NCBI GenBank assembly: GCA_001785675.1
Contig: MFUJ01000016.1
Location: 149-64,148, forward strand
Reading direction: 5' to 3'
Length of the DNA: 64,000 bases
DNA from: Candidatus Nomurabacteria bacterium RIFCSPHIGHO2_12_FULL_37_29
GTDB taxonomy: Bacteria; Patescibacteriota; Minisyncoccia; Phycocordibacterales; UBA9973
Shown: piece by piece, positions 2,617 to 45,924 of the stretch
Position numbering within the stretch: the first letter of the stretch is position 1
How the letters are laid out: every line of letters begins with the position of its first letter
Made by a program: the position numbers and the translations under genes
The notes under the pieces: model-generated
Seen by the model: the letters and a program-made list of their open reading frames with translations, nothing else
Databases searched by the model: none
What the model was told of the DNA's origin: nothing

Positions 2617-3234
2617 TTGTTAATTATGGATACAGGGAAATTACTTTTAACATCAACAGGTCTATCTTCTGAAAATATCGCAAAAAGATTTCAGAGTTTT
2701 TTTGCTGATTCTGGAAGTCAGGCTGTTGCAATAATTACTACTGCTGCGGAGGGTAAGGAGCAAAATAAATATTCCCAATTAGCTAAAAAGCAGTTCAAGA
2801 AAATGGGATTTACTAAGATCGATTTTGTTGATCTCGAGACAGAGCCAACTATAGATTTTTCTTCGTATAGAGTAATTTATGTGTGTGGTGGAAACACATT
2901 TAAACTTCTAAAATTTGCACGAAAGGCAAATTTCCAGTCTTCGGTTAATAATCTCATAAAACGTAATGGTGTATATGTTGGTGTTAGTGCTGGAAGTATT
3001 ATTGTCAGTCCGTCTATTAATATTGCAAATGAGGTTGAGCCTGACTCAAATGATATTGGCTTAGAAGATCTTACTGGTTTTAATATCACTAATCTTATTA
3101 TTCTCCCACATTATTCTCCAGAAGTTGAGGAAGAAACAAAAGCTTTTGAGACAAAATATGGAGTTACTGTAGAACGTTTGAACAACTATCAGGCTGTCCT
3201 TATAGAAAACGGAGAAAAAACTATTATTGAATAA
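2617..3234 (+). CDS. peptidase S51 (dipeptidase E-like) / class I glutamine amidotransferase-like protein
   Basis: YVCGGNTFKLLKF and GVSAGSII motifs typical of the PepE/cyanophycinase family. Confidence 0.6.
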   Translation: MLIMDTGKLLLTSTGLSSENIAKRFQSFFADSGSQAVAIITTAAEGKEQNKYSQLAKKQFKKMGFTKIDFVDLETEPTIDFSSYRVIYVCGGNTFKLLKFARKANFQSSVNNLIKRNGVYVGVSAGSIIVSPSINIANEVEPDSNDIGLEDLTGFNITNLIILPHYSPEVEEETKAFETKYGVTVERLNNYQAVLIENGEKTIIE

Positions 3235-3237
3235 AAA

Positions 3238-3263
3238 TGGGGGCACACTTGCGTATGCCCCCA
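3238..3263. terminator. bidirectional hairpin terminator at the left border of the high-GC island
   Basis: Perfect 8-bp stem tgggggca/tgccccca with a 10-nt loop, lying between the convergent stops at 3234 (+) and 3266 (-). Confidence 0.5.
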
Positions 3264-3265
3264 TG

Positions 3266-4021
3266 TCAGATCAACCTCTTAATTTTACTCATCACATCCT
3301 TCACCCTTTTCCTCCTTGAGAGTTCTAGGGCAAGTTCATAGATGAGTAGGTCCGAAGACCTAAGGAGCCTTGCTTGCTGTTCAAGCGATCGGAATCCACG
3401 GAAGTATCTTCGACTATGCGCGAACGCAAGTCGAACCATCGAGGCCATGATATCCGAGAGGCATAATTCTCGCTCGAGAGTTGCATTTTCATGCAATTTC
3501 TCAAGCGTTGAGAGTTTCTGCCTGATCTCGTCAGCACACAGCTCAACGATAGATTTCGAGAGCGAGGCGGGGTAGGGAACAAGCAGCTCCCTAAGTCGGA
3601 CACTGATATCCGTAACATCATACAGAGTCTCGGCAGTTGCCAAGTCTCCGCACAACGCTTCTGGCAACCAGTATCCGGTAGCCCAGGGGCGGTGTTGACA
3701 GCCCAGATTCCTGCCCTCAATCCACTCCTCGACCTGCCTAACGAGCAAGGCTGAATCGCAAACTGCGACACCTCCAGAGCCCATCGGCAGATCAAAGCGA
3801 ACACTGTCATCGCACACAAAGAAGTTTCCGGTTGGCCACCGATTCTCTAGCAAAGCTTTGATGGTGTTGGAATATCTTTCAATACTCCCGTCATCACAGC
3901 CTGCCAAAAGGTCGATTTTGCCTTTTGCCGAATTCCTCTTCAGTCCAACATGTAGTAGCACTTTCATGCCATACAATTCACGCAAAACGTGAGACAGATC
4001 GGAGGCTAAGCTATTTTTCAT
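3266..4021 (-). CDS. hypothetical protein, possibly nucleotidyltransferase-like; last gene of the high-GC operon
   Basis: 251-aa ORF with high GC. Its start overlaps the stop of the upstream gene by 4 nt (4018-4021). No firm domain; KGKIDLLAGCDDGS and the helical C-terminus are only weakly NTase-like. Confidence 0.45.
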   Translation of the reverse strand: MKNSLASDLSHVLRELYGMKVLLHVGLKRNSAKGKIDLLAGCDDGSIERYSNTIKALLENRWPTGNFFVCDDSVRFDLPMGSGGVAVCDSALLVRQVEEWIEGRNLGCQHRPWATGYWLPEALCGDLATAETLYDVTDISVRLRELLVPYPASLSKSIVELCADEIRQKLSTLEKLHENATLERELCLSDIMASMVRLAFAHSRRYFRGFRSLEQQARLLRSSDLLIYELALELSRRKRVKDVMSKIKRLI

Positions 4022-5136
4022 AGTGCCTCCTTGTTCCGTTTCGACTCCTCAAGCTCGATAAGAGCCTTCGGAAATCCGAATGTGGACGTTAGATACTCGA
4101 TGTCTGATCCGGTCAGAGGGCCATTACTGCGAGAGGTAAGTTTTGTATATTCCTTCCTCCCACGCTCAAGCCCCTTCTCGAATTTTGACACCTCCTCGGC
4201 AAACACAGTCTGCACCGCATCAGCCGAGGCCCATTGATTTCCTGATATCACGACAAACTCATCAAATGAGATGGATGTCTGTCGGCAGAGGATGAAAGCC
4301 TCTCGGATGAGTTTCCGAAGGACATAATCCGCCGCTTTGTTTCCAGGCCGAAGCCCTTCCGATACCAGGAGTACCGCCGCTTTGCCGAGATCGGCGAGGC
4401 GACACATGATGGCTTGATCCTTTACTTCGGATTGTTCCGTGATGGATTCGATCACGCCTTTCCAGCTCGAGTTTTCGTAATCGCTGCCACAGCATTCGAC
4501 TGCTGTGACGATACGATCAATGCTCGCTCCCGAATCGGCGGCAATCTTCTCCAGGGGAGATTCGAAAAGCGTTTCGCCCAGAAACTCGGTAAAGACCAAG
4601 TTCCAGAGCTCGATCGACTTATCCGTGTCTGGATTTCTCCAGACGATCTCCGTGCGAATACCGCATCGATTCTGGGTCGGAGTAAAGGTGACGTTCTTGT
4701 CATTGCTGACAGTCCTGACACCCAACCTTTCCCATATTTTCTGCGATGTTGCATCTTGTGGATGCACTGTTGCCGACAGCGTGGCAGGGCTGATCCCTGC
4801 ACACACTGTCAGATAATGCCAAGCACTCTCGATCATTACATCCTTCACCTCTTGCTCCTTGCCCTCGTAGAGGGAAAAGTGGCCGAGCATGTCGAATGCA
4901 AGATGGTGCCTTCCCGACAAACCGATCTTCTCCCATCTATCTGTCCGCAAGCATGTCTGAACCGAAACGACACGGGTCTTCTCAGGGATTACTCCATGAG
5001 AGATCGCGTTCTCGAAAACGACACCGCCAGAGATGTTGAACAGGAGCTTAGGGTTTGCGCTTACGATTGGAACGCTGTCTTGCCACTGGAAACCGAAGGT
5101 CCCGAAGTGGCGTCTGATTTCATCATACGTCTTCAT
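4018..5136 (-). CDS. divergent alanyl-tRNA synthetase catalytic-domain homolog (mini-AlaRS-like, 372 aa)
   Basis: Class II AlaRS motifs are present: NPKLLFNISGGVVF, RHHLAFDMLGHFSLY, ELWNLVFTEF, ADSGASIDR and YVLRKLIREA. Motif 3 (GPCGPC) is degenerate (NRCGIRTE). The start is set at the ATG 5136-5134, which forms an ATGA overlap with the radical SAM stop. The longer ORF call to 5430 overlaps the upstream gene by 300 nt. Confidence 0.65.
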   Translation of the reverse strand: MKTYDEIRRHFGTFGFQWQDSVPIVSANPKLLFNISGGVVFENAISHGVIPEKTRVVSVQTCLRTDRWEKIGLSGRHHLAFDMLGHFSLYEGKEQEVKDVMIESAWHYLTVCAGISPATLSATVHPQDATSQKIWERLGVRTVSNDKNVTFTPTQNRCGIRTEIVWRNPDTDKSIELWNLVFTEFLGETLFESPLEKIAADSGASIDRIVTAVECCGSDYENSSWKGVIESITEQSEVKDQAIMCRLADLGKAAVLLVSEGLRPGNKAADYVLRKLIREAFILCRQTSISFDEFVVISGNQWASADAVQTVFAEEVSKFEKGLERGRKEYTKLTSRSNGPLTGSDIEYLTSTFGFPKALIELEESKRNKEAL

Positions 5137-6356
5137 GGAGAACCTCCCATTGCCAGATGTTTGAATACAGTCTGCCTGACTGCGTAGGTGAACTTGCTCA
5201 TCTCGGGATGAGTAACAAGTCCGTGGTTGATATCCCAACTCACTACGTGAGCCGGAATCCCGAGGCTGTCCAAGATACCCTGTGCTCGCTCCGCCGTCAT
5301 ATTGTAGGCTGAGCCTTGAGCGCAGATTCTCCGTTGGGCCAGAGGGCAGCGAGATGCCTCGCATTCTGACCGCGCGAAAATCTGTACCGAAGTGATGCTC
5401 GGAATCTTGAGCATCCGAGTAAGGGCGCACGACGACTTGAGATAGACGGGGATACCGGGAAAGTGTTCGGCGCTCAGTGAGAAGATGGAATCCACCAACT
5501 CCTGCGGCAACAACTTCACATTGTCATCCCGAGGGATGTTCGGCATGGGGAGCTTATGAATCTCCACCAGTCCGTTCTCGATACCTTCCGTCCAGCGCAG
5601 ACCGCCCGGAACGATCATGTCGATGACTTCGCCGTAGTGTTTTTTCACCCACAGCATCATCATCTCGATTCTGTCCCGATTACCGCTCCACTCAGGAACG
5701 ATCGGTCGCATGTACCACGCAATGGTGGCTCCTGCTTCCTTGGCTTCCTCAGAATTGAGAAAGCGGTTGTTATGCGCTGGCTCAATCGTGTCTGGATTGT
5801 CTGCCCAGCACAGCGACAGCATCAAGCCGCGCGTTGCATTCGAGATGCGGGCGAAGTCAAGCTTCCTCCCTTTAGGAACGCCACCTTTGGTAACGATCCA
5901 GAAGGGATTCCGTAGACCGCGCCGGACGAATCCGTCCATGATCTCGAATGTACTGTCTACGACAGCAGGAGCGAACGGCTCCGTGCTTGCTGTCCCGATG
6001 CTGATGATTGTCTCATCAGCAATGAAGAACGGATGCTTGACCAGTTCATCGAGGATTTGATCCACGCTAAACTGATTGCGCCGTTTCGGTTTTCTCGGCA
6101 TGGTGCCTCGCTCGTCGAGATCTTGGTAGGTCCCTTGAACGTGGCAGTACCGGCATTGCCAGGCGCAACCGATCCAGAGATCGATGCTCAGCGAGCTGTT
6201 GGACACACTGACTGATGAAAGGGGATGATTACTATCTGGCACGAGAGCTCCATACGTGTATTCACGCAAGGAAAACTCCTGTCCCGTAGTCGTGCCCCTG
6301 ATTTGGACGAGCGGCTCAGAATTAATGGCCGCGAAGTATTCCATCTTGGAATTCAT
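5133..6356 (-). CDS. radical SAM protein (SPL/DNA-photolyase-like family)
   Basis: CAWQCRYC is a CxxxCxxC cluster in the GC..C.YC context seen in spore-photoproduct-lyase-like radical SAM enzymes. 4-nt overlaps on both sides. Confidence 0.6.
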   Translation of the reverse strand: MNSKMEYFAAINSEPLVQIRGTTTGQEFSLREYTYGALVPDSNHPLSSVSVSNSSLSIDLWIGCAWQCRYCHVQGTYQDLDERGTMPRKPKRRNQFSVDQILDELVKHPFFIADETIISIGTASTEPFAPAVVDSTFEIMDGFVRRGLRNPFWIVTKGGVPKGRKLDFARISNATRGLMLSLCWADNPDTIEPAHNNRFLNSEEAKEAGATIAWYMRPIVPEWSGNRDRIEMMMLWVKKHYGEVIDMIVPGGLRWTEGIENGLVEIHKLPMPNIPRDDNVKLLPQELVDSIFSLSAEHFPGIPVYLKSSCALTRMLKIPSITSVQIFARSECEASRCPLAQRRICAQGSAYNMTAERAQGILDSLGIPAHVVSWDINHGLVTHPEMSKFTYAVRQTVFKHLAMGGSP

Positions 6357-7093
6357 GTGACTTCTCCTTTCAGGTAGTTGATGTTTCGTGTGACTTGTTC
6401 TTCCGTTGTCATACCAATGACAACGGAAGTGCCGAGGGTGAGTGCATTTCGTGCAACCATCTCGGCCGAGTGCGGGTCAGTGAGCAACTTCCCCTGTTTG
6501 AACAGACTTCTCAAGAGAACCTCCTTTTTAAGATCAAGCAGATATGGGAGCTGTTGAAGCGCCCAAGTCTGCTCAGTGTTGAAAGGAGCTTCAATCACGT
6601 CGATGTGCGGCAAAACCGCTTCAGCGACAGGATATGAGAAATTGTCGGGTAGGGAAATTCCTACACGCTTGACGATGCCTTCATCCTTAAGCCCCTTAAG
6701 GCACTCAAGGATTACTACTGCTTCTGACGACCACGTGGGCAACCAGTTGTGCAGAAGTACCGTGTCGATGGAAGATCGCCGTAGCCTTTCCAATGATCCG
6801 TACACACTTCGATGTATGCCATCTCGTGAGTAAAATCTTTGGATCGGTTCAGGTGCTTCCAGATTCGGTTTTGATGCTGCCGGAATTTTGGTCACAATGA
6901 CCGCATCTTCCGGTAGGCATGCGCCAAGCATCTCCTCGACCTTGCCTCCACCATAGACGGCCGCCGTATCAAAACGACGGATACCGGAGCTGATGGCGAA
7001 AAGCAGAAGCGATTCAATATAGGCAGGGGACAGGTTTTTGAACTGTCCTCCAAGTTGCCACGTACCGAAGTAGAGGCGATCAAACCAGTCCAT
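6353..7093 (-). CDS. aldo/keto reductase family oxidoreductase
   Basis: GTWQLGG...GIRRFDTAAVYGGGKVEEMLG is the aldo/keto reductase N-terminal signature. 246 aa; first gene of the minus-strand operon. Confidence 0.7.
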   Translation of the reverse strand: MDWFDRLYFGTWQLGGQFKNLSPAYIESLLLFAISSGIRRFDTAAVYGGGKVEEMLGACLPEDAVIVTKIPAASKPNLEAPEPIQRFYSRDGIHRSVYGSLERLRRSSIDTVLLHNWLPTWSSEAVVILECLKGLKDEGIVKRVGISLPDNFSYPVAEAVLPHIDVIEAPFNTEQTWALQQLPYLLDLKKEVLLRSLFKQGKLLTDPHSAEMVARNALTLGTSVVIGMTTEEQVTRNINYLKGEVT

Positions 7094-7275
7094 GTTTTCT
7101 CCTTAATTTTTAGGTTGTAAAAGAGCGTGGAATTGCGATAAGTTCTAGCACAAAACTACAATATATTCTCTAAAATGTCAATGGGTATCCCAAAAGGCGT
7201 ATCCTTGCCGTAATTATAATTGTGTGTTAATGTAATGCCGGAACGAAAACCCTAAACCACAGAAAGGACCTTGTA

Positions 7276-8568
7276 ATGAAACTGCTATATAAGACGACCG
7301 AGGAAGTGCGCCAGACCTTTCTGAGCCACTTTCTCAAGCATGATCACCAGCTCATCGATCCATCGGGGATCATTCCCAAGAACGATTCGACTCTCATGTT
7401 CATCAACTCGGGTATGGCCCCGCTCAAGCCATATTTCACGGGCCAAGCGAAACCGCCGTATCCGCGCCTGACGAACGTGCAGGACTGCATCAGGTTTGTG
7501 GACGTTGAAAGCGTCGGCGATTCCTATCACGGAACGAACTTCCGCATGATGGGTTCCTGGTCCTTCGGAGACTACTTCAAAGAACGGGCCATCGAGCTTG
7601 CCTTTGAACTCATCACCGAGGGATTCGGTATTCCTGCTGAACGTCTCTCCGCCACGGTATTCCTGGCAGACGAAAGTCTGCCAGGCGTACCGAGCGACGA
7701 AGAATCGGCTCGCATCTGGGAGAAATTCTTACCGCGAGATCGAATCATCGGACGGCCACCAGTAGACAACTTCTGGGGTCCAGCGGGAACCAGTGGTCCA
7801 TGTGGCCCTTGCACGGAAGTCTTCTTTGATCGAGGCGAGGAATTCGCCGAGAAAGAAACGGACGACGTGCTGGTTCCTGGGCGACACATCGAGATCTGGA
7901 ATGCCGGAGTGTTCATGCAATACTTCAAAGACGAGCAAGGGAATTTCTCTCCGCTCCCTATGAAGTGCGTGGATACGGGAGCGGGCCTTGAGCGCTTCGC
8001 CATGATCCTACAGGGCCGTGCCTCGATCCACGAGATCGATCAGTACGGCTCGTCCTACCAACTCATCAATCAGAGAATTGGTGACACGGCATGGACGAGG
8101 GTCATTCTCGACCACATCAAGACCTCGATTCTGATGATTCGTGAGGGTATCATTCCGAGCAACACTCGGGAGGGTTACCTTCTCCGTCGTGCGCTTCGGC
8201 GTGCGATGATCGGCATCTTCCTGCGAGGGATCAATCTGACCATTCTTCAGGAGTGGGCAGACTCTCTCAGCGAAGTGATCGATAACAAGGACCTGACCAT
8301 GCGTCAGAAATCTGTTATTGCACACTGGCTCAGCGAGGAGCGTGATAGCTTCGAAAAGCTGATGCATCGCAGCAGAAAGTATCTCGATAAGATCGTCATG
8401 GCTAAGGAGTTGGATGCGCAACATGCATTCACTTTGAAAACCGGCGTGGGTATTCCCGAAGATCTTCTGGAGGAATTCTGTTCTCGTCACGGCATTCCAT
8501 TTCCGAAGATTGAGTTCCTCCGACTTATTGAGGGGCATAAGGATGTCTCGCGTCGGCCGAAGAAGTAG
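7276..8568 (+). CDS. truncated alanyl-tRNA synthetase catalytic core (430 aa, no editing or C-Ala domains)
   Basis: Near-canonical AlaRS motifs: NSGMAPLKPYF, FRMMGSWSFGDYFK, GPCGPCTEVFFDRG, IEIWNAGVFMQYF, VDTGAGLERFAMIL and GYLLRRALRRA. The ORF ends in RRPKK* immediately before a terminator. High GC. Confidence 0.7.
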   Translation: MKLLYKTTEEVRQTFLSHFLKHDHQLIDPSGIIPKNDSTLMFINSGMAPLKPYFTGQAKPPYPRLTNVQDCIRFVDVESVGDSYHGTNFRMMGSWSFGDYFKERAIELAFELITEGFGIPAERLSATVFLADESLPGVPSDEESARIWEKFLPRDRIIGRPPVDNFWGPAGTSGPCGPCTEVFFDRGEEFAEKETDDVLVPGRHIEIWNAGVFMQYFKDEQGNFSPLPMKCVDTGAGLERFAMILQGRASIHEIDQYGSSYQLINQRIGDTAWTRVILDHIKTSILMIREGIIPSNTREGYLLRRALRRAMIGIFLRGINLTILQEWADSLSEVIDNKDLTMRQKSVIAHWLSEERDSFEKLMHRSRKYLDKIVMAKELDAQHAFTLKTGVGIPEDLLEEFCSRHGIPFPKIEFLRLIEGHKDVSRRPKK

Positions 8569-8590
8569 TTCTTTTTGTCTGCACTATGTG

Positions 8591-8630
8591 GAGCCCACCC
8601 GTTAACAAGACGGGCGGGCTCTTTTTTGTT
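8591..8630 (+). terminator. rho-independent terminator at the right border of the high-GC island
   Basis: gagcccacccg-ttaacaa-gacgggcgggctc forms a 12-13-bp stem and is followed by a TTTTTTGTTTTT run. Confidence 0.6.
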
Positions 8631-8696
8631 TTTATGAATATTTATTTAATAAAAAATTAAGTTTCTTTTTGCTTCGCATTTTGCTATATTCAATAA

Positions 8697-9548
8697 ATGT
8701 TAAAGATCGGGATTGTTGGTCTGCCAAATGTGGGGAAGTCCACGCTTTTTAATGCGTTGACGAAAAAGAGTGTACCAGCAGAAAATTATCCCTTTTGTAC
8801 TATTGATCCATCGGTAGGTATTGTTCCTGTGCCAGATGAAAGATTAGATAAACTATCAGCCATGTCTAAGTCCAAGAAAAAGATTCCTGCAGTGGTAGAA
8901 TTTGTAGATATTGCGGGATTGGTGAAGGGGGCAAGCGAGGGCGCAGGACTCGGTAATAAATTCCTTTCCCATATTAGAGAAGTGGATGCAATCATTGAAG
9001 TGGTGCGAATTTTTGAAGATAAAGATATGATTCATGTTCACGATAATATTGACCCGCTTTTTGATATTGAAGTTATAAATTTTGAACTTGAACAAGCTGG
9101 AATTACAAAACCGACTTTGTATGTGCTTAACACATCAGAAGCGGCAGAGAGTGTGAAAAAAGATTTTATATCAAAACTTCCAGGCCCACATATTGAAATT
9201 GATCCTATTTTTGGAACTGGTTTGGATAATCTAGTACAAGCAAGCTACGATCTTTTAAATTTAATTACTTTTTTCACTACCGGCGAAGATGAATCGAGGG
9301 CTTGGACTACGTTTCGTGGAGCGACCGCGCCTTTTGCTGGTCGCGCTATCCATAATGATTTTAAAGAAAAATTTATCCGCGCAGAAGTAATTAACTGGAA
9401 AGATTTATTAGACTGTGGCCGTTCAGGCTCTGAAGAGCCCTCAGGCTCGATGAGCTCTTATGTTGTCGCTCGCTCCAAAGGACTAGTGCGAACTGAAGGT
9501 AAAGAGTATATTGTGCAAGATGGAGATGTGATTGAATTTTTAATATGA
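8697..9548 (+). CDS. ychF: ribosome-binding ATPase YchF (Obg-like ATPase), short form
   Basis: IGIVGLPNVGKSTLFNALT...NYPFCTIDP...VEFVDIAGLVKGAS at the N-terminus and a C-terminal TGS-like YIVQDGDVIEF. 283 aa, versus about 363 aa typically. Confidence 0.75.
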   Translation: MLKIGIVGLPNVGKSTLFNALTKKSVPAENYPFCTIDPSVGIVPVPDERLDKLSAMSKSKKKIPAVVEFVDIAGLVKGASEGAGLGNKFLSHIREVDAIIEVVRIFEDKDMIHVHDNIDPLFDIEVINFELEQAGITKPTLYVLNTSEAAESVKKDFISKLPGPHIEIDPIFGTGLDNLVQASYDLLNLITFFTTGEDESRAWTTFRGATAPFAGRAIHNDFKEKFIRAEVINWKDLLDCGRSGSEEPSGSMSSYVVARSKGLVRTEGKEYIVQDGDVIEFLI

Positions 9549-30715: not shown

Positions 30716-31909
30716 CTATTTTAGTCTTAAATTACCACTTGCTTTTATATTGGAAGCCTTGCCAAATTTTCCTTTCTTTTTTGCATAGAGCAAGTATCCC
30801 GCTATGCCAATCATTAAAGAATTATCTCCCACAAGTTCTTTTGGGGGAAATAGAAGTTTGATTTTATTACTTGCCTGTCCTTTGACGCGACTTGCAATTT
30901 TTTTTATTTCATTTCTCAAGTGTTGATTCGCAGCCACTCCTCCCGCAACAATAAGAGTTTTTACTTTATATTTTTCTATCGCTTTTTTTGTTTTATAAAT
31001 CAAACATTCAATGGCCGCGTTTTCAAATTCTAAAGCTATTTTTATTTTTGTTTTTTCATCTAGTAAACCAATTTTCTTGATTAAGTAAAGAACCGCCGTT
31101 TTCAGTCCCGAAAAAGAAAAATCTAAATTCTTAGAATGAAGCATTGGGCGCGGGAGGGAAAAAGAAAATAAGCTTTGATGGGACTCCACAGGGCGACGGC
31201 CCGAGGACTGAGTAAATTTTTCAGCAGAAAAATTACGACCCTGAAAAGTTTTATTTTCTTTTTCCCTCTCCCTCCCTTCTTCTGCCAATTTAGATATTTG
31301 TGGACCGCCAGGGTAGGGGAGGTCGAGCATCCGAGCAACTTTATCAAAAGCTTCGCCGACGGCATCGTCCAAGGTTTCGCCAATTATTTCATATCGCATC
31401 CACTTTTTACTGAGTACTAACTGTGTGTGTCCACCAGAAACCAAAAGAGAAAGTGTTGGAGTTTTCACTTTGGGTATGGTAAATTTTCCTTTATTTTTTC
31501 CAAATACAGAAAGTATATGTCCTTCCATGTGATTTACAGGCACCACGGGCACATTCCACTTTTTTGTTAACTCCTGCGCAAAAGTTATGCCTGCCCAGAG
31601 CGCTGGTTCTAATCCTGGACCATAAGTCACAGCTATTAAGTCAATCGGTGCTTTGGTCGTTAGGTCTTGCCTAGCGACGTTGTTTAGATGGGCTTGCTTT
31701 AATGCTTGTTCTAGCAGAATTGGTAAATTTTTAATATGTTCTTGTTTAGCGAGCATTGGATATACTCCGCCATAAGGAATATGGATTTTTATTTGCGAAT
31801 TTGAAATATCCGCCAAAACTTTGAAAGAAGCATTATTAATGCCTCCTTTTGCTTCCACTATACTTATTCCAGTATCGTCGCAAGATGTTTCAATCGAAAG
31901 AATGATCAT
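30716..31909 (-). CDS. tsaD: tRNA N6-adenosine threonylcarbamoyltransferase TsaD (Kae1/YgjD family)
   Basis: MIILSIETSCDDTGISIV and GVAANQHLR. Metal-binding HxxH in NHMEGHIL. 397 aa with an internal insertion. Confidence 0.85.
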   Translation of the reverse strand: MIILSIETSCDDTGISIVEAKGGINNASFKVLADISNSQIKIHIPYGGVYPMLAKQEHIKNLPILLEQALKQAHLNNVARQDLTTKAPIDLIAVTYGPGLEPALWAGITFAQELTKKWNVPVVPVNHMEGHILSVFGKNKGKFTIPKVKTPTLSLLVSGGHTQLVLSKKWMRYEIIGETLDDAVGEAFDKVARMLDLPYPGGPQISKLAEEGREREKENKTFQGRNFSAEKFTQSSGRRPVESHQSLFSFSLPRPMLHSKNLDFSFSGLKTAVLYLIKKIGLLDEKTKIKIALEFENAAIECLIYKTKKAIEKYKVKTLIVAGGVAANQHLRNEIKKIASRVKGQASNKIKLLFPPKELVGDNSLMIGIAGYLLYAKKKGKFGKASNIKASGNLRLK

Positions 31910-32386: not shown

Positions 32387-32448
32387 ATTCTTGGTTTATG
32401 TGTTTAATTATAATAAAAAACCTATCTTACAATTATACCACAATCTTA

Positions 32449-32467
32449 GTGCCGGGAGGGAGACTCG
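32449..32467 (-). repeat. 19-bp direct repeat duplicating the 3' end of tRNA-Leu(TAG)
   Basis: gtgccgggagggagactcg at 32449-32467 is identical to 32562-32580 (the tRNA 3' acceptor/T-arm), 94 bp away. Confidence 0.7.
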
Positions 32468-32562
32468 GTCACAGGTCTTTTTCTATTGAAAAAGCCTGCG
32501 ACCCCACCTCGACACGTCTGTCTCCGGCTTTCGAGTCAGCACAAATATATAACATATCTTTG

Positions 32563-32644
32563 TGCCGGGAGGGAGACTCGAACTCCCAAGGGTTGCCCCA
32601 CTAGTTCCTAAGACTAGCGCGTATACCAATTCCGCCATCCCGGC
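32563..32644 (-). tRNA. tRNA-Leu (anticodon TAG), type II
   Basis: Reverse complement folds as acceptor GCCGGGA/TCCCGGC, anticodon stem CTAGT/ACTAG with loop CTTAGGA, a long variable arm, and T-arm GGGAG-TTCGAGT-CTCCC. No encoded CCA. Confidence 0.75.
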
Positions 32645-32766
32645 AAAAATCAAACCGTTTCGCACAAAGTGCGTTAGCACTTTGTGCGCCTAATTGTAGC
32701 AAATTGGAACCTTATTTTCAATCAAATAAAGGGTTTTTCGTTTGTTTAGTAAAAAATTAAATTTTT

Positions 32767-33127
32767 ATGTTTGCCATTTACAGTTTATACATTTTATGTT
32801 ATAAGCTATTTGAAGGAGTCAAGATCTTGGGACAAAATTTCGCAGCGATGTGTTATGTGGCGGCCGCAGTCCGAGCTGGACAATTACCAGACAAAGATCG
32901 TACTGACGCCGAAATACAGGCGTTGTTCACGGCAAGTTGTCAGACCCTACCACCATGCCCCAAATGCAATCGGACAATGGTCAGTAGCGGGGGTCAATTT
33001 CACTGCACCGTTCACGGCGATCCGACGCTGTTACCCAACGAGGAAGTTAGTGACGAGGCGTGGATGGGAGCAGAACGTAACCGTCTATAATTCAAAAGGG
33101 TCGAGAGTCTCATACTCTCAAGGATAG
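32767..33127. other. GC-rich ~400-bp segment open in two overlapping + frames; candidate structured ncRNA or small Zn-ribbon protein
   Basis: About 50% GC against about 33% in the flanks. ORFs of 107 and 118 aa lie in frames +1 and +2 over the same DNA. The first contains CPKCNRTM...HCTVHG. Sits inside a minus-strand tRNA cluster. No RNase P, tmRNA or SRP core motifs found by eye. Confidence 0.3.
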
Positions 33128-33325
33128 CCAGACACACCGAAAGGAGGTAAGGTGCCTGGCTATTTTCAATTTCAACACAGAATGATTTTGTGGTCAGGAA
33201 TAATTTTGTTTTTGTCAAAACAAAATTTTCACGACCCTGCCTCGTCTATTTTTTCTGCTGAAAAAATATGACTCCGGCTCGCACAGCTAAAAAATCTACA
33301 GAAGTGCAGATTTTTCTTTACGCTG

Positions 33326-35718: not shown

Positions 35719-35821
35719 GAATTATCCCAGATTGTAAGATTTTAGAGCACGGATATTTTTTTGCTAAAAAAATCCTCGTGTTAGCTTACGTTGCGCTTGC
35801 AAGTCTCCAAAACCCTACAGC

Positions 35822-36322: not shown

Positions 36323-37564
36323 ATGCTAAAATCAAATAACGCAAAAAAAATATATCTAGATTATGCATCCAGTTCGCTTCTTAACTCCGCGAATCCAGGA
36401 GCAATTCATGAATTTGGAATAAAAGAAAAAAACAAACTTGAAGAAGCCAGGACAACTGTTGCAAAGACTTTAAATGCATATCCCAATGAAATTATTTTCA
36501 CATCCGGCGCAACGGAAAGTAACAACTTGGCTATTTTAGGGTTAGTTCAGAATTTTAAGCAATATTCTAAGTTGCCACACATAATAACTACAAATATCGA
36601 ACATTCATCTGTTTTAGAAATTTGTAAACATTTAGAAAAAACAAAACAAGCAGAAGTGACTTATATAAAAGTAGAATTGAACGGAATAATTGATCCAAAG
36701 AAAATAAAAAAAGCCCTTAAAAAAAATACCATCTTAGTTTCGGTTATGTATGCGAATAATGAAATTGGTACGGTCCAGCCGATACAAGATATTGCAAAAG
36801 AGATTAGACATTGGAAAAAAGGCAAAGATAGCTTTTTGGAGCACAGATATTTTTCTGTTGAAAAATTCCTCGTGCTTACGCCGTCAAGAGTTTCTAAAAA
36901 GCTATCTTTGCCTTTTTTCCATACCGATGCTACACAAGCAATAAATTATTTACCCATAAATGTTCAAAAATTAGGAATTGATTTAATGTCTTTTAATAGT
37001 GCTAAAATTTATGGACCTAAAGGGGTCGGTGTCTTATATGTAAAAAAATACACACCTGTCAGGAAAATTATGTTCGGTGGAGATCAAGAAAGGGGACTAC
37101 GACCGGGAACAGAAAATGTGGTCGGGGCTATTGTGTTAGCCTCTGCCATAGAAATTACTGAAAAAATAAAAAAAAAGGAAACTATTCGTTTAACCAAACT
37201 CCGAGATTATTTTTTTAATGAGCTACAAGCAATGTCAAAGACGATCTTTAGCACTGGATTAATAGTAAACGGTGACTTAACAAACAGATTACCCAATAAT
37301 GTGAATATTAGTTTTAAAAATATTCCGAGCGACCTTCTGGTAATTGAGTTATCAGCTAGAGGTATCATGGCTTCTGCTAAAAGTGCCTGTAAAGCTGGAG
37401 ACAGTAAAGCTTCGCATGTAATAAAAGCGATTAATCCAAAAGCCAAAGACACAGATGGATCTTTAAGATTTTCCCTAGGCAAAGATACTACAAAAAAAGA
37501 TATTGATTATACTGTCAAAGCTTTTACTCAAATTTTGACAAAACTAAAAAAGTGGTATAATTAA
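36323..37564 (+). CDS. cysteine desulfurase (IscS/NifS, class V aminotransferase)
   Basis: IYLDYASSS near the N-terminus, TSGATESNNLAI, a PLP-lysine region SFNSAKIYGPKGVGVLYV, and active-site loop SAKSACKAG. Confidence 0.75.
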   Translation: MLKSNNAKKIYLDYASSSLLNSANPGAIHEFGIKEKNKLEEARTTVAKTLNAYPNEIIFTSGATESNNLAILGLVQNFKQYSKLPHIITTNIEHSSVLEICKHLEKTKQAEVTYIKVELNGIIDPKKIKKALKKNTILVSVMYANNEIGTVQPIQDIAKEIRHWKKGKDSFLEHRYFSVEKFLVLTPSRVSKKLSLPFFHTDATQAINYLPINVQKLGIDLMSFNSAKIYGPKGVGVLYVKKYTPVRKIMFGGDQERGLRPGTENVVGAIVLASAIEITEKIKKKETIRLTKLRDYFFNELQAMSKTIFSTGLIVNGDLTNRLPNNVNISFKNIPSDLLVIELSARGIMASAKSACKAGDSKASHVIKAINPKAKDTDGSLRFSLGKDTTKKDIDYTVKAFTQILTKLKKWYN

Positions 37565-41158: not shown

Positions 41159-42874
41159 TTATTTTGTGTGGGTGCGAGAGCAATACCTCACCCAAGGTAG
41201 ACAAGCGTCGGTACTCAAGTGGTCAACGAGGGCAGACTGTAAATCTGCTGGCTTCGGCCTCCGAAGGTTCGAATCCTTCCCGGCGCACAACCTAGGACGA
41301 ATTGGTGCGAAAGCATCAGTTCGTCCTTGCGCGTTATGATTATTTTTCCGTTCCAACCGCTCAATTTCAGGCATGAGCTCTTTTTCGCCTTTTTTAAGCA
41401 CCGAGAACCAAGAATGCAGATCAATAAAGAGTTTTCTAGATTCTATCTGTTGGTTCAAACCTAAACTACTTAGGATCTCCCTTTGTATTTGTGTATCGCC
41501 CTTTTGTAAGGCTATACTCGCACAATATGCAAAATGAACAACATTTTCAGTAAGTTCAGTCCAATTCTTTGCGCGTGTTTCAACCTCAGACAATTTTATT
41601 TTTTCTTTCTTAAGTATTTCTTCGAGTTCATGTTTTTGAGTATTGTATTCTTCTCTCGTGATAGTGCCGTCAATAAGAAAACCAAGGATACGATCTAATT
41701 TCTTTTGACCCTCTTCAACATTCTTTAGATGGGTTTCGTAAATTTGCTGACGCGTGCCTGTCTCGGTCTCATGCATTTCTTTCAAAACTTCTAATCCCAA
41801 CTTATAAAACTTCGGATTAATGTGATTTGTCTCTATAAGACTTTGCACAGCAATCTCCAGCTCATCCAGTCGTATTGGTTTTTCTTTGCAATCAATATAT
41901 TTTCTGCGTTTAGTGCAATGATAATAAGTATGGTAGTTAATAGTTCCATCCTTCAAGATTTTGTGCTTTTTTGAAGCTGTAATACATGCTCCACAACCAC
42001 CGCATGTCATAAGACCAGTAAAGGGAAAATCATGCTTCTGTGGCCGAGGCCGGCCTTTCTTACCCATTAGCACTTGCACCCGATCAAATTCCTCCATAGA
42101 GATCATTTGTTCATGATTGCCTTTATAAAGTTGCTTGTTGTAGTAAAAGTTTCCAGTGAAAAATATATTGCTAAACAAAAGATACATATAGCTTATTGAT
42201 AGAGGTTTTCCACCTAGCTTCTTTCTATTCGGTGTTCGCAAACCTAATTCATCAGTCGCTATCTGTAATATTTTTGGGATTGTATAATTTCCTGTGAGCA
42301 TTAAGTCCCACATCTTACGAACAATTAGGAAGCGTTCTCTATCGGTAATTATCGTCTCGTTTCCTTTTTCATGAGTTTTTGAATTTAGATATCCAATGGG
42401 CGGAATATTAGGGAACCATCCTTTTTCTGCCTTCGATCTCATTCCTCGTTTTACATTTGTAGATAAATCACGAATATACTGACTAGACATTCCACTTTCG
42501 ACTGACATTATGATGGCGTTGTCTTCCGGAAAATAATTCTTTTCTGGGGTCTTAATACAAAGTAATTTTTTCTTCTCCAAAAAATATTGTACTGCTCCAT
42601 TGTCTATAGCATTTCTACCGAGCCTATCCATTTTCCACACCAGAAGACCATTAATTTTCCCTTGCTCAACTAATTTCATGAGTTCAGTGAACCCATCTCG
42701 CTTGTATGGCTCTTTCGCAGATTTTGCTTCTTGGATTATTTGAACAACCTTGAGATCTTCTCGGTTTGCTAATACTTTTAGATTATTAATTTGATCGTTA
42801 ATGGATTGGATTTGTCGATCAGACGACTCAGTTGATTTTCTGGCGTATATTGCCCATCTAATATTTTTATCCAT
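41159..42874 (-). CDS. large serine recombinase (resolvase/invertase N-domain + recombinase domain + zinc ribbon); 3' end reads antisense through tRNA-Tyr
   Basis: MDKNIRWAIYARKSTESSDRQIQSINDQI carries the catalytic Ser in the YARKST context. Recombinase domain and a CGGCGAC...C zinc ribbon follow. The last ~45 codons are antisense to tRNA-Tyr (41205-41287). Confidence 0.75.
   Translation of the reverse strand: MDKNIRWAIYARKSTESSDRQIQSINDQINNLKVLANREDLKVVQIIQEAKSAKEPYKRDGFTELMKLVEQGKINGLLVWKMDRLGRNAIDNGAVQYFLEKKKLLCIKTPEKNYFPEDNAIIMSVESGMSSQYIRDLSTNVKRGMRSKAEKGWFPNIPPIGYLNSKTHEKGNETIITDRERFLIVRKMWDLMLTGNYTIPKILQIATDELGLRTPNRKKLGGKPLSISYMYLLFSNIFFTGNFYYNKQLYKGNHEQMISMEEFDRVQVLMGKKGRPRPQKHDFPFTGLMTCGGCGACITASKKHKILKDGTINYHTYYHCTKRRKYIDCKEKPIRLDELEIAVQSLIETNHINPKFYKLGLEVLKEMHETETGTRQQIYETHLKNVEEGQKKLDRILGFLIDGTITREEYNTQKHELEEILKKEKIKLSEVETRAKNWTELTENVVHFAYCASIALQKGDTQIQREILSSLGLNQQIESRKLFIDLHSWFSVLKKGEKELMPEIERLERKNNHNAQGRTDAFAPIRPRLCAGKDSNLRRPKPADLQSALVDHLSTDACLPWVRYCSRTHTK
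41205..41287 (+). tRNA. tRNA-Tyr (anticodon GTA), type II
   Basis: Acceptor GCGTCGG/CCGGCGC (one G-U pair), D-stem CTC/GAG, anticodon stem GCAGA/TCTGC with loop CTGTAAA, long variable arm GGCTTCGGCCTCC, T-arm GAAGG-TTCGAAT-CCTTC. No encoded CCA. Confidence 0.75.
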
Positions 42875-43017
42875 ATATTTTTTGTCCCAAAAAAGGGGCA
42901 ATAGTTAAGATCCTGTAATCGCTAAACCACAAGACCACTATTACCCCTTTTCTGGATTGAAAATATGGAATCTTATTGTCTCGTGGTTTAGCTTATTAAT
43001 TATATCATGTTTTAAAG

Positions 43018-45225: not shown

Positions 45226-45924
45226 AAATTTTTGTTGTTAAATTGATAAACTGCTTCTAATAAACACACAAGCGAAGTCAGCTCAACTCGAGCTTGAGCC
45301 TTGTCAATTGGTTGACCATACTCTTCGAGATAGATGGCCACATATTTTTCTATTTGCTTCTCGGTAATTGGCATAAATAGAAAATCCACTTTTGGCTTGG
45401 CAGGCTACTGAGCAAGCGACCTGCAAACCCAAAAATGGATTTATTAGTGCTCAGTATTTACTGCCAAACAAAACAACCGCACTTCATAATGCGGTTTATG
45501 AAAGCAAAAAGCTGCCGTCATATTCCATGTCATCATGAAATAAAACGGCAGCCTCTCGATTTTTCCTGCCCAGTGAGATTCCTAGTCTCTTGTACAACCT
45601 TCTGTCTTAGAGAAGGCGCTCCGATTTACCGGAGAGGTGTGCATATATAATAATGCTAAAAAAATTCAAGTCAAATGAGGGGTGTTAATAAGTTTAAGAA
45701 AAAAAGTAAGATGTGATAAGATGTTGTTATAACTTAATAAGAAAGACCTAACCCTTATAGCGATATGAGATATGGTCAAAAGACCCATGGAAGACACTGA
45801 ACCCCTCGTTCAGCAACTCTTCCATGGGCTATACAGGGAAACTTGTATAGGGTCGTAAGACCTAGCTGGCGTGGGGTTCTGTGTTTTTCCGCGCTAGCTT
45901 ATTATCAGCTAGCTTTTTATTTTT

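Follow-up and report, generated by a model that had tools for sequence, protein, structure and literature searches.

A complete small structured element, and probably not an integrase scar, underlies a partial tRNA-Leu repeat in a Nomurabacteria genome

We analysed a stretch of 64,000 nucleotides from Candidatus Nomurabacteria bacterium RIFCSPHIGHO2_12_FULL_37_29 (contig MFUJ01000016.1, positions 149 to 64,148; this whole stretch is called the window), in which the last 19 bp of a tRNA-Leu(TAG) gene recur a short distance downstream of the gene. An original prediction, made from the sequence alone, had taken this repeat for the attL/attR signature of a tRNA-targeting integrase, left either as the scar of an excised or largely deleted element or around a very small residual insertion. 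Our results favour a different explanation, to which we give a probability of roughly 0.65: the repeat is the target-derived flank of a complete, small, non-coding and structured insertion element of about 94 bp with a 68-nt core, module M, and no integrase was involved. The best reading of the element is a non-autonomous insertion element or a structured RNA with a target duplication. The family to which it belongs appears to be previously undescribed; literature searches by topic and by sequence string returned no match for the element.

The repeat of tRNA-Leu(TAG) brackets a conserved module

The tRNA-Leu(TAG) gene is intact at 32562/3-32644 on the minus strand. The 19-mer GTGCCGGGAGGGAGACTCG at its 3' end has two exact copies in the window, at 32449-32467 and 32562-32580, and no further copy was found there when up to 3 mismatches were allowed; 100 shuffles gave a chance expectation of 0. 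The copies are separated by 94 bp, and both the duplication and the predicted spacing of about 94 bp were thus confirmed. Read on the minus strand, copy 1 is CGAGUCUCCCUCCCGGCAC and spans tRNA C56 to N74, comprising the T-loop from C56, the 3' strands of the T-stem and acceptor stem, the discriminator and one further base. Imperfect similarity extends about 20 bp beyond the tRNA end (blastn, 40 nt at 87.5%). The locus was base-for-base the same, with a 113-bp spacing, in 8 of 8 contigs retrieved from NCBI, JGI and ENA records, and the arrangement is therefore not an assembly artefact. The larger element that had been envisaged between the repeats appeared in none of these eight contigs. The features of the locus are as follows.

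32693-32721, minus strand: promoter-like TTGAAA-17-TACAAT with TG, directly upstream of tRNA-Leu (consensus scan)
32562-32644, minus strand: tRNA-Leu(TAG), intact, CCA not encoded (ARAGORN; Rfam tRNA, 58 bits)
32562-32580, minus strand: direct repeat copy 1 (X), tRNA C56-N74 (exact 19-mer)
32539-32565, minus strand: trailer hairpin GCACAAAGAUAUG-UUA-UAUAUUUGUGC, formed by the final tRNA bases and the initial insert bases (fold; coordinates)
32532-32537, minus strand: left arm GACUCG, the reverse complement of the initial 6 nt of the repeat (CGAGUC) and 5' strand of the closing helix P1 (sequence)
32467-32534, minus strand: conserved 68-nt module M (covariance model R1, 87.8 bits, E ~5e-19; covariation)
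32506-32528, minus strand: helix P2 of the module, with GNC/GN'C, a GGA/GA internal loop, a 4-bp stem and a GACG loop
32467-32503, minus strand: helix P3 of the module, GGUCGC..UUUUU-CAAUAG-AAAAA..GUGACC
within 32467-32534, minus strand: module linkers, 3 nt before P2 and GG between P2 and P3
32449-32467, minus strand: direct repeat copy 2 (X'), its initial 6 nt being the 3' strand of P1, followed by a tail identical to the tRNA 3' end
32429-32448, minus strand: degenerate, trailer-like continuation of the duplication (blastn, 40 nt at 87.5%; alignment)

The initial C of X' doubles as the final base of the module, and the continuation at 32429-32448 may overlap the promoter of the neighbouring cupin gene. 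Because a promoter-like site precedes tRNA-Leu and the window scan found no terminator-like site between the gene and the insert, co-transcription is plausible here. Judged by its sequence, the promoter-like site at 32693-32721 could drive tRNA-Leu and the insert together.

The original prediction had regarded the downstream copy as a bare partial repeat, as opposed to part of a second divergent tRNA or tRNA-like gene or a recognised terminator. We found it to be neither of the latter, but it is not a bare repeat either: it forms the 3' arm and tail of a structured element. ARAGORN and the Rfam tRNA model (E up to 10) detected no cloverleaf at 32440-32560, and the scan found no intrinsic terminator in the same interval, where the U run of P3 sits within a stem. 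Folding of the spacer, which had been proposed as a check, gave a stable single-sequence structure (z = -5.5) in which GCCGG and CCGGC pair like an acceptor stem, but this pairing is absent in homologues such as that in L038 (L numbers denote related loci), and we rejected it. With a chance expectation of 0 for the 19-mer as well, virtually no credence is left for a second tRNA-like gene, a terminator or a chance repeat.

On the 5' side of the gene, tRNA-Lys and tRNA-Leu(TAG) are separated by about 540 bp (32645-33188) that are relatively GC-rich and absent from the otherwise related contig L008 (MFTV01000013). This block contains an open reading frame (ORF) of 107 aa at 32767-33090 with CxxC...HC motifs and no Pfam match. 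The identity between L008 and the window jumps from 86-92% to 100% precisely at the 5' end of tRNA-Leu.

Related modules adjoin many tRNA and tmRNA genes

The 63 nt adjoining repeat copy 2 recur with 77-85% identity in other Paceibacteria genomes, as revealed by blastn against loci fetched via the neighbouring TsaD gene. Homologues of this block lie directly 3' of a same-strand tRNA, namely tRNA-Val (L038), tRNA-Phe (L014) and tRNA-Glu (L029), and behind the block in L038 comes a 22-nt repeat of the 3' end of the local tRNA-Val, again with the same T-loop start. A strict 39-nt search pattern taken from the long hairpin, GGGGTCGC-N4-TTTTTCA-N2-AGAAAAA-N4-TGTGACC, matched no viral contig and, in metagenome contigs, at least 119 stretches. 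The metagenome stretches and the other loci retrieved together made up 119 non-redundant instances; as the family was gathered by a sequence pattern, the lower part of P3 and the U5/A5 stem are thereby fixed. Taxon labels, which accompany the genome-derived loci only, read Nomurabacteria, Paceibacterota or 'Patescibacteria group'.

Against covariance model R1, which was built from alignment A2 of family members, the window copy scored 87.8 bits as a full-length member. The 94 bp that had been viewed as the scar of an excised or largely deleted element are thus a full-length copy of the conserved 68-nt module. A small insertion was the closest of the options originally offered, but not as the remnant of anything larger. 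Rfam 15 gave no meaningful match to the module in the window (E up to 10) and none at gathering score in 10 related loci.

The association with tRNA genes is strong. Among the 104 instances with enough upstream sequence, 74 lie within 200 nt of the end of an upstream same-strand tRNA, and most of the remaining 30 have a same-strand tRNA starting 11-73 nt downstream; at random sites the expectation for such proximity is about 1% at this genome size, a figure of our own estimation and not computed by a tool. Modules are associated with 29 tRNA isoacceptors, and transfer-messenger RNA (tmRNA) genes likewise precede them (L043, L076). At every tRNA or tmRNA site of the family the unit measures about 70-100 nt and is without cargo. 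Many tRNA clusters hold several modules, as in L130, where the order is Cys-M-Leu-M-Lys-M. The tip motifs exchange helices in some copies, with the CAGCAG hairpin in P2 and the GACG-type hairpin in P3, and the tRNA-sense orientation is kept. The window itself holds a variant member:

33192-33280, minus strand: variant member, separated from the upstream tRNA-Lys(CTT) by about 45 nt; P2, not P3, holds the U-rich CAGCAG hairpin (R1, 22.7 bits; sequence)

The spacer from tRNA-Lys to tRNA-Leu holds a canonical module in relatives L093, L094, L139 and L131. A P3-like A/U hairpin, CGAGGAUUUUUUUAGCAAAAAAAUAUCCGUG, was also observed between the DUF4446 gene and IF2 (35748-35778, minus strand), as a weak R1 match of 16.6 bits.

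The module folds as a three-way junction with covariation

Alignment A2 comprises 68 instances and is gap-free. Its fold is a three-way junction in which a 3-nt linker, P2, a GG linker and P3 follow one another and the outer helix P1 closes the structure. P2 consists of GNC/GN'C, the internal loop GGA/GA, a 4-bp stem and a G(A/U)CG loop, and P3 of GGUCGC, a variable 4 bp with a bulged A, U5, the loop CAGCAG, A5 and GUGACC. Across the 68 sequences, 99.4% of the cells assigned to pairs were paired, and compensatory change was found at 9 pairs (154 cells). The covariation score was 0.322, compared with 0.112 for shuffled alignments (0 of 500 reached 0.322) and at most 0.059 for slid partners. G-U pairs are conserved; at the second P3 wobble, where the U is fixed by the search pattern, the free partner is only G or A. 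The fold was assigned to the tRNA-sense strand because the opposite strand would give C-A mismatches. As read from the sequences, these compensatory changes, G-U pairs and strand-specific loops point to a constraint on tRNA-sense-strand RNA or single-stranded DNA. The invariant hairpin loops GACG and CAGCAG, the latter on its U5/A5 stem, probably serve as the platform by which a protein, whether a processing factor or the mobilising enzyme, recognises the element.

The outer helix P1 was assessed in alignment A3, whose 21 units were picked solely by the T-loop-like start of their 3' flank. P1 covaries with tRNA identity in these units: one pair is UA in 13 and CG in 8, and another is CG in 8, UA in 6, AU in 2 and GC in 1. 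The geometry of P1 is not uniform across the family, in which P2 varies in length and some units carry an extra hairpin. Candidate identities such as a hammerhead-like ribozyme, a k-turn or another known ribozyme or motif were rejected; the conserved cores do not fit, and Rfam gave no match.

The flanks of the module are derived from the target

At least 27 units have a 3' flank in which 12-25 or more nt of the tRNA upstream recur, and this repeat always starts at C56; in the common type, the last C of the module's GUGACC is tRNA C56. Rather than copying the 5' strand of the T-stem, the 5' flank is the reverse complement of tRNA positions 54 to ~69. For example, AGGAGGTGGGACTTGAA in L111 is the reverse complement of TTCAAGTCCCACCTCC. 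The left arm of the window copy is short and consists only of GACUCG (32532-32537). While the C56 end of the duplication is fixed, its far end is variable, often at position 73 or 74 and sometimes 32, 41 or ~65 bp further, so as to include the trailer and a terminator-like hairpin. The direct repeat ranges from 18 to ~65 bp across loci, and the whole unit is sometimes tandemly repeated.

Units located upstream of tRNAs are mirror images. One consists of a copy of tRNA-Asn -9 to +10, the module and the D-arm antisense; another of tRNA-Glu 1-46, the module and the T-arm antisense; and a third of tRNA-Ser 1-17, the module and then 21-37. The junctions of mirror units fall in the D-loop, the variable loop or the T-loop.

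Empty sites and an interrupted tRNA-Ser indicate insertion

The original prediction had recommended a comparison with related genomes for an unoccupied site, and such sites were found. L139 carries a tRNA-Leu(TAG) identical to that of the window at 83 of 83 positions, followed 2 nt on by tRNA-Cys, with no module. The same contrast was seen between L155 and L131. In L155, which has no element, a promoter-like TTGACT...TATACT comes straight after tRNA-Leu; in L131 (tRNA-Leu 82/83, element present), the L155-type promoter comes after the second repeat copy. The occupied site therefore equals the empty site plus about 94 bp and a direct duplication of 19-20 bp.

In L074 (contig Ga0075868_11), the module interrupts the T-loop of tRNA-Ser(UGA) just before C56 (3341-3498, minus strand). 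ARAGORN matches this tRNA only with the insert removed, and the Rfam tRNA model spans the insert at 37 bits. The left flank and module (95 nt) are 100% identical to a unit 900 bp away; that unit comes after an intact tRNA-Ser(CGA), and its last part is the 3' end of the same tRNA. Such identity indicates a recent copy event. When modules were computationally spliced out of the pattern-matched instances with enough flank, no junction-spanning new tRNA arose except in L074. The L074 contig also has a group I intron match at 7812-8057 (RF00028, 51 bits). For the window copy, a tRNA intron was rejected because the copy does not lie inside a tRNA gene.

Related elements lie in frame in two protein genes

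Two further elements of the window were located within protein-coding genes.

31154-31268, plus strand: module-like element with ~23-bp inverted arms, in frame in TsaD (30716-31909, minus strand) and antisense to the gene (R1, 32.7 bits, E ~1e-6)
36813-36920, minus strand: related hairpin element whose 25-bp inverted arms match perfectly; it lies in frame within a cysteine-desulfurase-like gene (36323-37564, plus strand) (R1 partial, 26.8 bits; sequence)

The TsaD insert of about 115 nt adds about 39 aa, including REREKENKTFQGRNFSAEKFTQSSGRRPVESHQSLFSFS. This TsaD position is filled in relatives too, by inserts of one orientation or the other whose arms vary by species yet stay complementary. 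The cysteine-desulfurase insert has a P3-like hairpin tip; orthologues in L059, L094 and L155 are without it, and other relatives carry different inserts at the same site. Read in module orientation, its 3' arm includes the original gene sequence and its 5' arm is the inverted copy, which is the polarity seen at tRNAs. Both host ORFs stay open despite the insert.

Neighbouring genes and the search for mobility proteins

The genes flanking the tRNA-Leu locus encode a cupin, TsaD, ValRS, RbfA and IF2, and no integrase, transposase or reverse transcriptase domain was detected in the neighbouring ORFs scanned. Clustering of neighbouring genes over the 119 instances revealed housekeeping synteny only, with no recurrent non-housekeeping protein. 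A serine recombinase found in 4 loci belongs to a separate element at the tRNA-Asn 3' end. Among the window ORFs scanned, the sole recombinase is a large serine recombinase at 41159-42901, 8.6 kb from the repeat, and it is unrelated to the tRNA-Leu repeat.

We also considered a guide RNA with a scaffold and a 3' guide, as in TnpB/IscB omega RNA, homing of CRISPR-associated transposons or the IS110 bridge RNA. This candidate was rejected: proteins of these systems do not recur in the neighbourhood, and the sense piece is paired with the antisense piece.

Proposed origin of the element

Under the explanation that we favour, the element or its ancestor would have inserted into a tRNA gene at a single-stranded loop, in this case between U55 and C56. 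Persisting lineages would be those that had duplicated the tRNA segment distal to the insertion point and so kept an intact tRNA; this may be why the repeat starts at C56 and stops at the tRNA 3' end or a little beyond it. Transcription from the tRNA-Leu promoter probably runs on through the insert, which would fold as RNA, with P1 pairing the anti-tRNA segment with the decoy copy instead of the tRNA. Two routes could yield the duplication together with the inverted arm: one fixed and one variable cut, as in target-primed synthesis with snap-back, or a tandem duplication followed by erosion of the interrupted copy and quasi-palindrome template switching.

Several points weigh against this explanation. 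The origin of the inverted arm and the duplication is one that we infer, and no mobilising enzyme was identified among the neighbouring ORFs scanned. Within-genome copies are mostly divergent, recent mobility being evident only in L074. Several relatives have a terminator-like hairpin interposed between tRNA and element, which disfavours simple co-transcription there. The in-frame copies occur in both orientations, so that selfish palindromic DNA fits them better than a single RNA function does. For the window copy, the family fold (-40.4 kcal/mol) is not the one of minimum free energy (-43.7 kcal/mol), and much of the invariance of P3 is imposed by the search pattern.

Alternative explanations

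The module could instead be a resident, non-mobile functional RNA gene or cis-element of tRNA operons with a role in processing, stability or regulation, in which the tail mimics the tRNA 3' end, the 5' arm is anti-tRNA and both are kept by selection and gene conversion. We hold this to be somewhat unlikely. The strong covariation, the sense-strand loop motifs that survive the helix swap, the retention of the element with base changes in L131, the ability of nearly every tRNA in a cluster to precede a module (L130) and a tail identical to the tRNA at 19 of 19 positions, though only 6 nt pair in P1, all speak for it. However, presence varies among relatives with identical tRNA, copies occur in protein-coding genes in both orientations, one copy disrupts a tRNA, and terminator-like hairpins precede some copies. 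An unlikely account, a shade less credible to us, is that the tRNA and its trailer were first doubled in tandem, the module entered the T-loop of the second tRNA and positions 1-55 were later deleted, so that the 19-mer is what remains of a second tRNA-Leu and the inverted arm arose by quasi-palindrome template switching. The complete but interrupted tRNA-Ser(UGA) in L074 agrees with such a history, as do intermediates that keep tRNA 1-46, or 1-17 and 21-37, beside an intact copy, the frequent inclusion of a trailer or terminator in the duplication (L055, L129, L082) and, in the window, a trailer after copy 2 that weakly resembles the one after copy 1. This account nevertheless presupposes that dozens of different tRNA genes had been tandemly duplicated beforehand in very small genomes, and most repeats stop right at the tRNA 3' end. 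A repeat identical at 19 of 19 positions beside a trailer only ~70% identical also indicates constraint or gene conversion, not passive erosion.

Retroposition resembling that of short interspersed nuclear elements (SINEs) is decidedly unlikely in our assessment. In this scenario, target-primed reverse transcription writes module RNA into the loops of tRNA genes; a first nick falls at U55/C56, a variable second nick sets the length of the duplication, and the cDNA snaps back and primes itself on the target to make the inverted arm. It would account for the fixed 3' junction with a direct repeat of 18 to ~65 bp, for an inverted target copy that adjoins the module exactly on its 5' side, at tRNAs as well as in the cysteine-desulfurase gene, for the strand-specific RNA-like structure with G-U pairs and for targets that are highly transcribed genes. 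On the other hand, the scanned ORFs in the neighbourhood of the copies encode no reverse transcriptase, a poly-A or CCA signature was not seen, and a recent survey of Patescibacteria did not detect group II introns in these bacteria (PMC13011429). The duplications also take in untranscribed or leader sequence upstream of tRNAs, and tandem whole-unit repeats occur; DNA-level duplication suffices to explain both.

Least probable of these accounts, and very improbable in our estimate, is the integrase scar itself, in which a tRNA-targeting integrative element or prophage at the tRNA-Leu T-loop was later deleted to 94 bp, leaving attL and attR. Its premise stood in part: a direct duplication starting in the T-loop does flank an insertion, and Williams reportedly described the T-loop in 2002 as an integrase sublocation. 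Empty sites in relatives and the large serine recombinase elsewhere in the window, beside tRNA-Tyr, also agree with it, although serine recombinases are not known to leave 19-bp repeats. An integrase att site was not supported: in the neighbouring ORFs scanned, no integrase lies beside the locus or recurs beside family members. The same unit size is found at 29 isoacceptors and at tmRNA genes, and independent deletions would not converge on one conserved unit. The left arm is tailored to each tRNA, the search pattern has no viral-contig matches, the spacing is 113 bp in 8 of 8 contigs, and the module lies within 200 nt of a tRNA in 74 of 104 loci.

Comparison with known systems

The element shares with tRNA- and tmRNA-targeting integrative elements (tyrosine-integrase attL/attR) a repeat that starts in the T-loop, an intact tRNA on one side, tmRNA targets and empty sites. 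It differs from them in having no integrase or cargo, a conserved folded insert of about 94 bp, arms that match the local tRNA and an inverted target copy on the opposite side. In being short, non-coding, highly structured, multi-copy and sporadically present, it resembles miniature inverted-repeat transposable elements (MITEs), Neisseria Correia elements, repetitive extragenic palindromes and bacterial interspersed mosaic elements (REP/BIME), and Rickettsia palindromic elements (RPEs). RPEs also insert in frame in protein genes, as seen here in TsaD and the cysteine desulfurase; the comparison is one of working, and Rickettsia is unrelated to Patescibacteria. Unlike those of a MITE, the arms differ per locus and copy the target, with no constant terminal inverted repeats, and the duplication is long and variable (18 to ~65 bp, one end fixed) instead of short and fixed. 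Small palindromic repeats, for their part, lack the specificity for tRNA/tmRNA loops and the tRNA-sense strand and the three-way-junction core with strand-specific conserved loops that mark this family.

The L074 member in the T-loop of tRNA-Ser(UGA) recalls tRNA introns, both bacterial group I introns in anticodon loops and archaeal non-canonical introns, which also occur in T-loops. In contrast to these, the module at 68 nt is far below group I size, has no Rfam intron match and no evident splicing mechanism, and the instances examined by splicing out, other than L074, adjoin an intact tRNA instead of lying inside one. Patescibacteria are rich in tRNA introns, with group I introns at position 35/36 (PMC13011429).

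One fixed junction, a long or variable target duplication and tRNA-related targets are also features of SINEs and other target-primed retroposition and of Cas1-type integrases (casposons, CRISPR repeats). This likeness is limited to architecture: no reverse transcriptase or Cas1 was found nearby, and there are no terminal repeats and no A-tail. The intervening sequences of 23S rRNA are likewise extended stem-loops that occur sporadically in a loop of a stable-RNA gene. By analogy with them, the long perfect stem could be an RNase III substrate. The present family differs from intervening sequences in its host genes, in a conserved three-way-junction tip common to its sites and in the position of most copies outside a functional RNA.

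Significance of the family

The genomes of Patescibacteria are among the smallest of bacteria, and the retention of a non-coding element at many tRNA and tmRNA genes therefore needs explaining. The family is a defined object, with a 68-nt three-way junction, two invariant loops, an exact C56 junction and target-copied arms in both orientations. It could reveal a new insertion mechanism acting on stable-RNA gene loops or, equally, a new layer of tRNA-transcript processing in organisms that lack many standard RNases and regulators. A bolder proposal, which we regard as clearly unlikely, is that the module is a new RNA-level bacterial element entering tRNA and tmRNA gene loops. It would be either a SINE analogue (target-primed reverse transcription with snap-back) or intron-like, removed from at least one tRNA-Ser T-loop, and its anti-tRNA arm and mimic tail could control tRNA maturation. 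For annotation, partial tRNA repeats of this type in these genomes should not be labelled as att sites of prophages or islands, and the in-frame copies in TsaD and the cysteine-desulfurase gene alter the gene models.

Other features of the window

The order of genes around TsaD differs among relatives. Most of them (L009-L038) have tRNA-Val(GAC) directly upstream of TsaD, whereas the window has the cupin gene and a tRNA-Cys/Leu/Lys/Leu cluster there, so that synteny breaks at this tRNA-rich junction. The possibility that the element is a remnant of the relatives' tRNA-Val gene was rejected, as there is no sequence similarity.

The serine recombinase at 41159-42901 is 580 aa long and contains Resolvase, Recombinase and Zn_ribbon_recom domains. 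Its 3' end overlaps a tRNA-Tyr gene on the opposite strand (41205-41288), and the gene may mark the edge of an integrated element. A full-length LOOT RNA (RF03000) was detected at 45745-45863 with a score of 80.7 bits. The region at ~3000-9000 has a GC content of 46-55%, compared with ~35% for the genome, and is packed with ORFs on both strands; this GC-rich block was possibly acquired horizontally.

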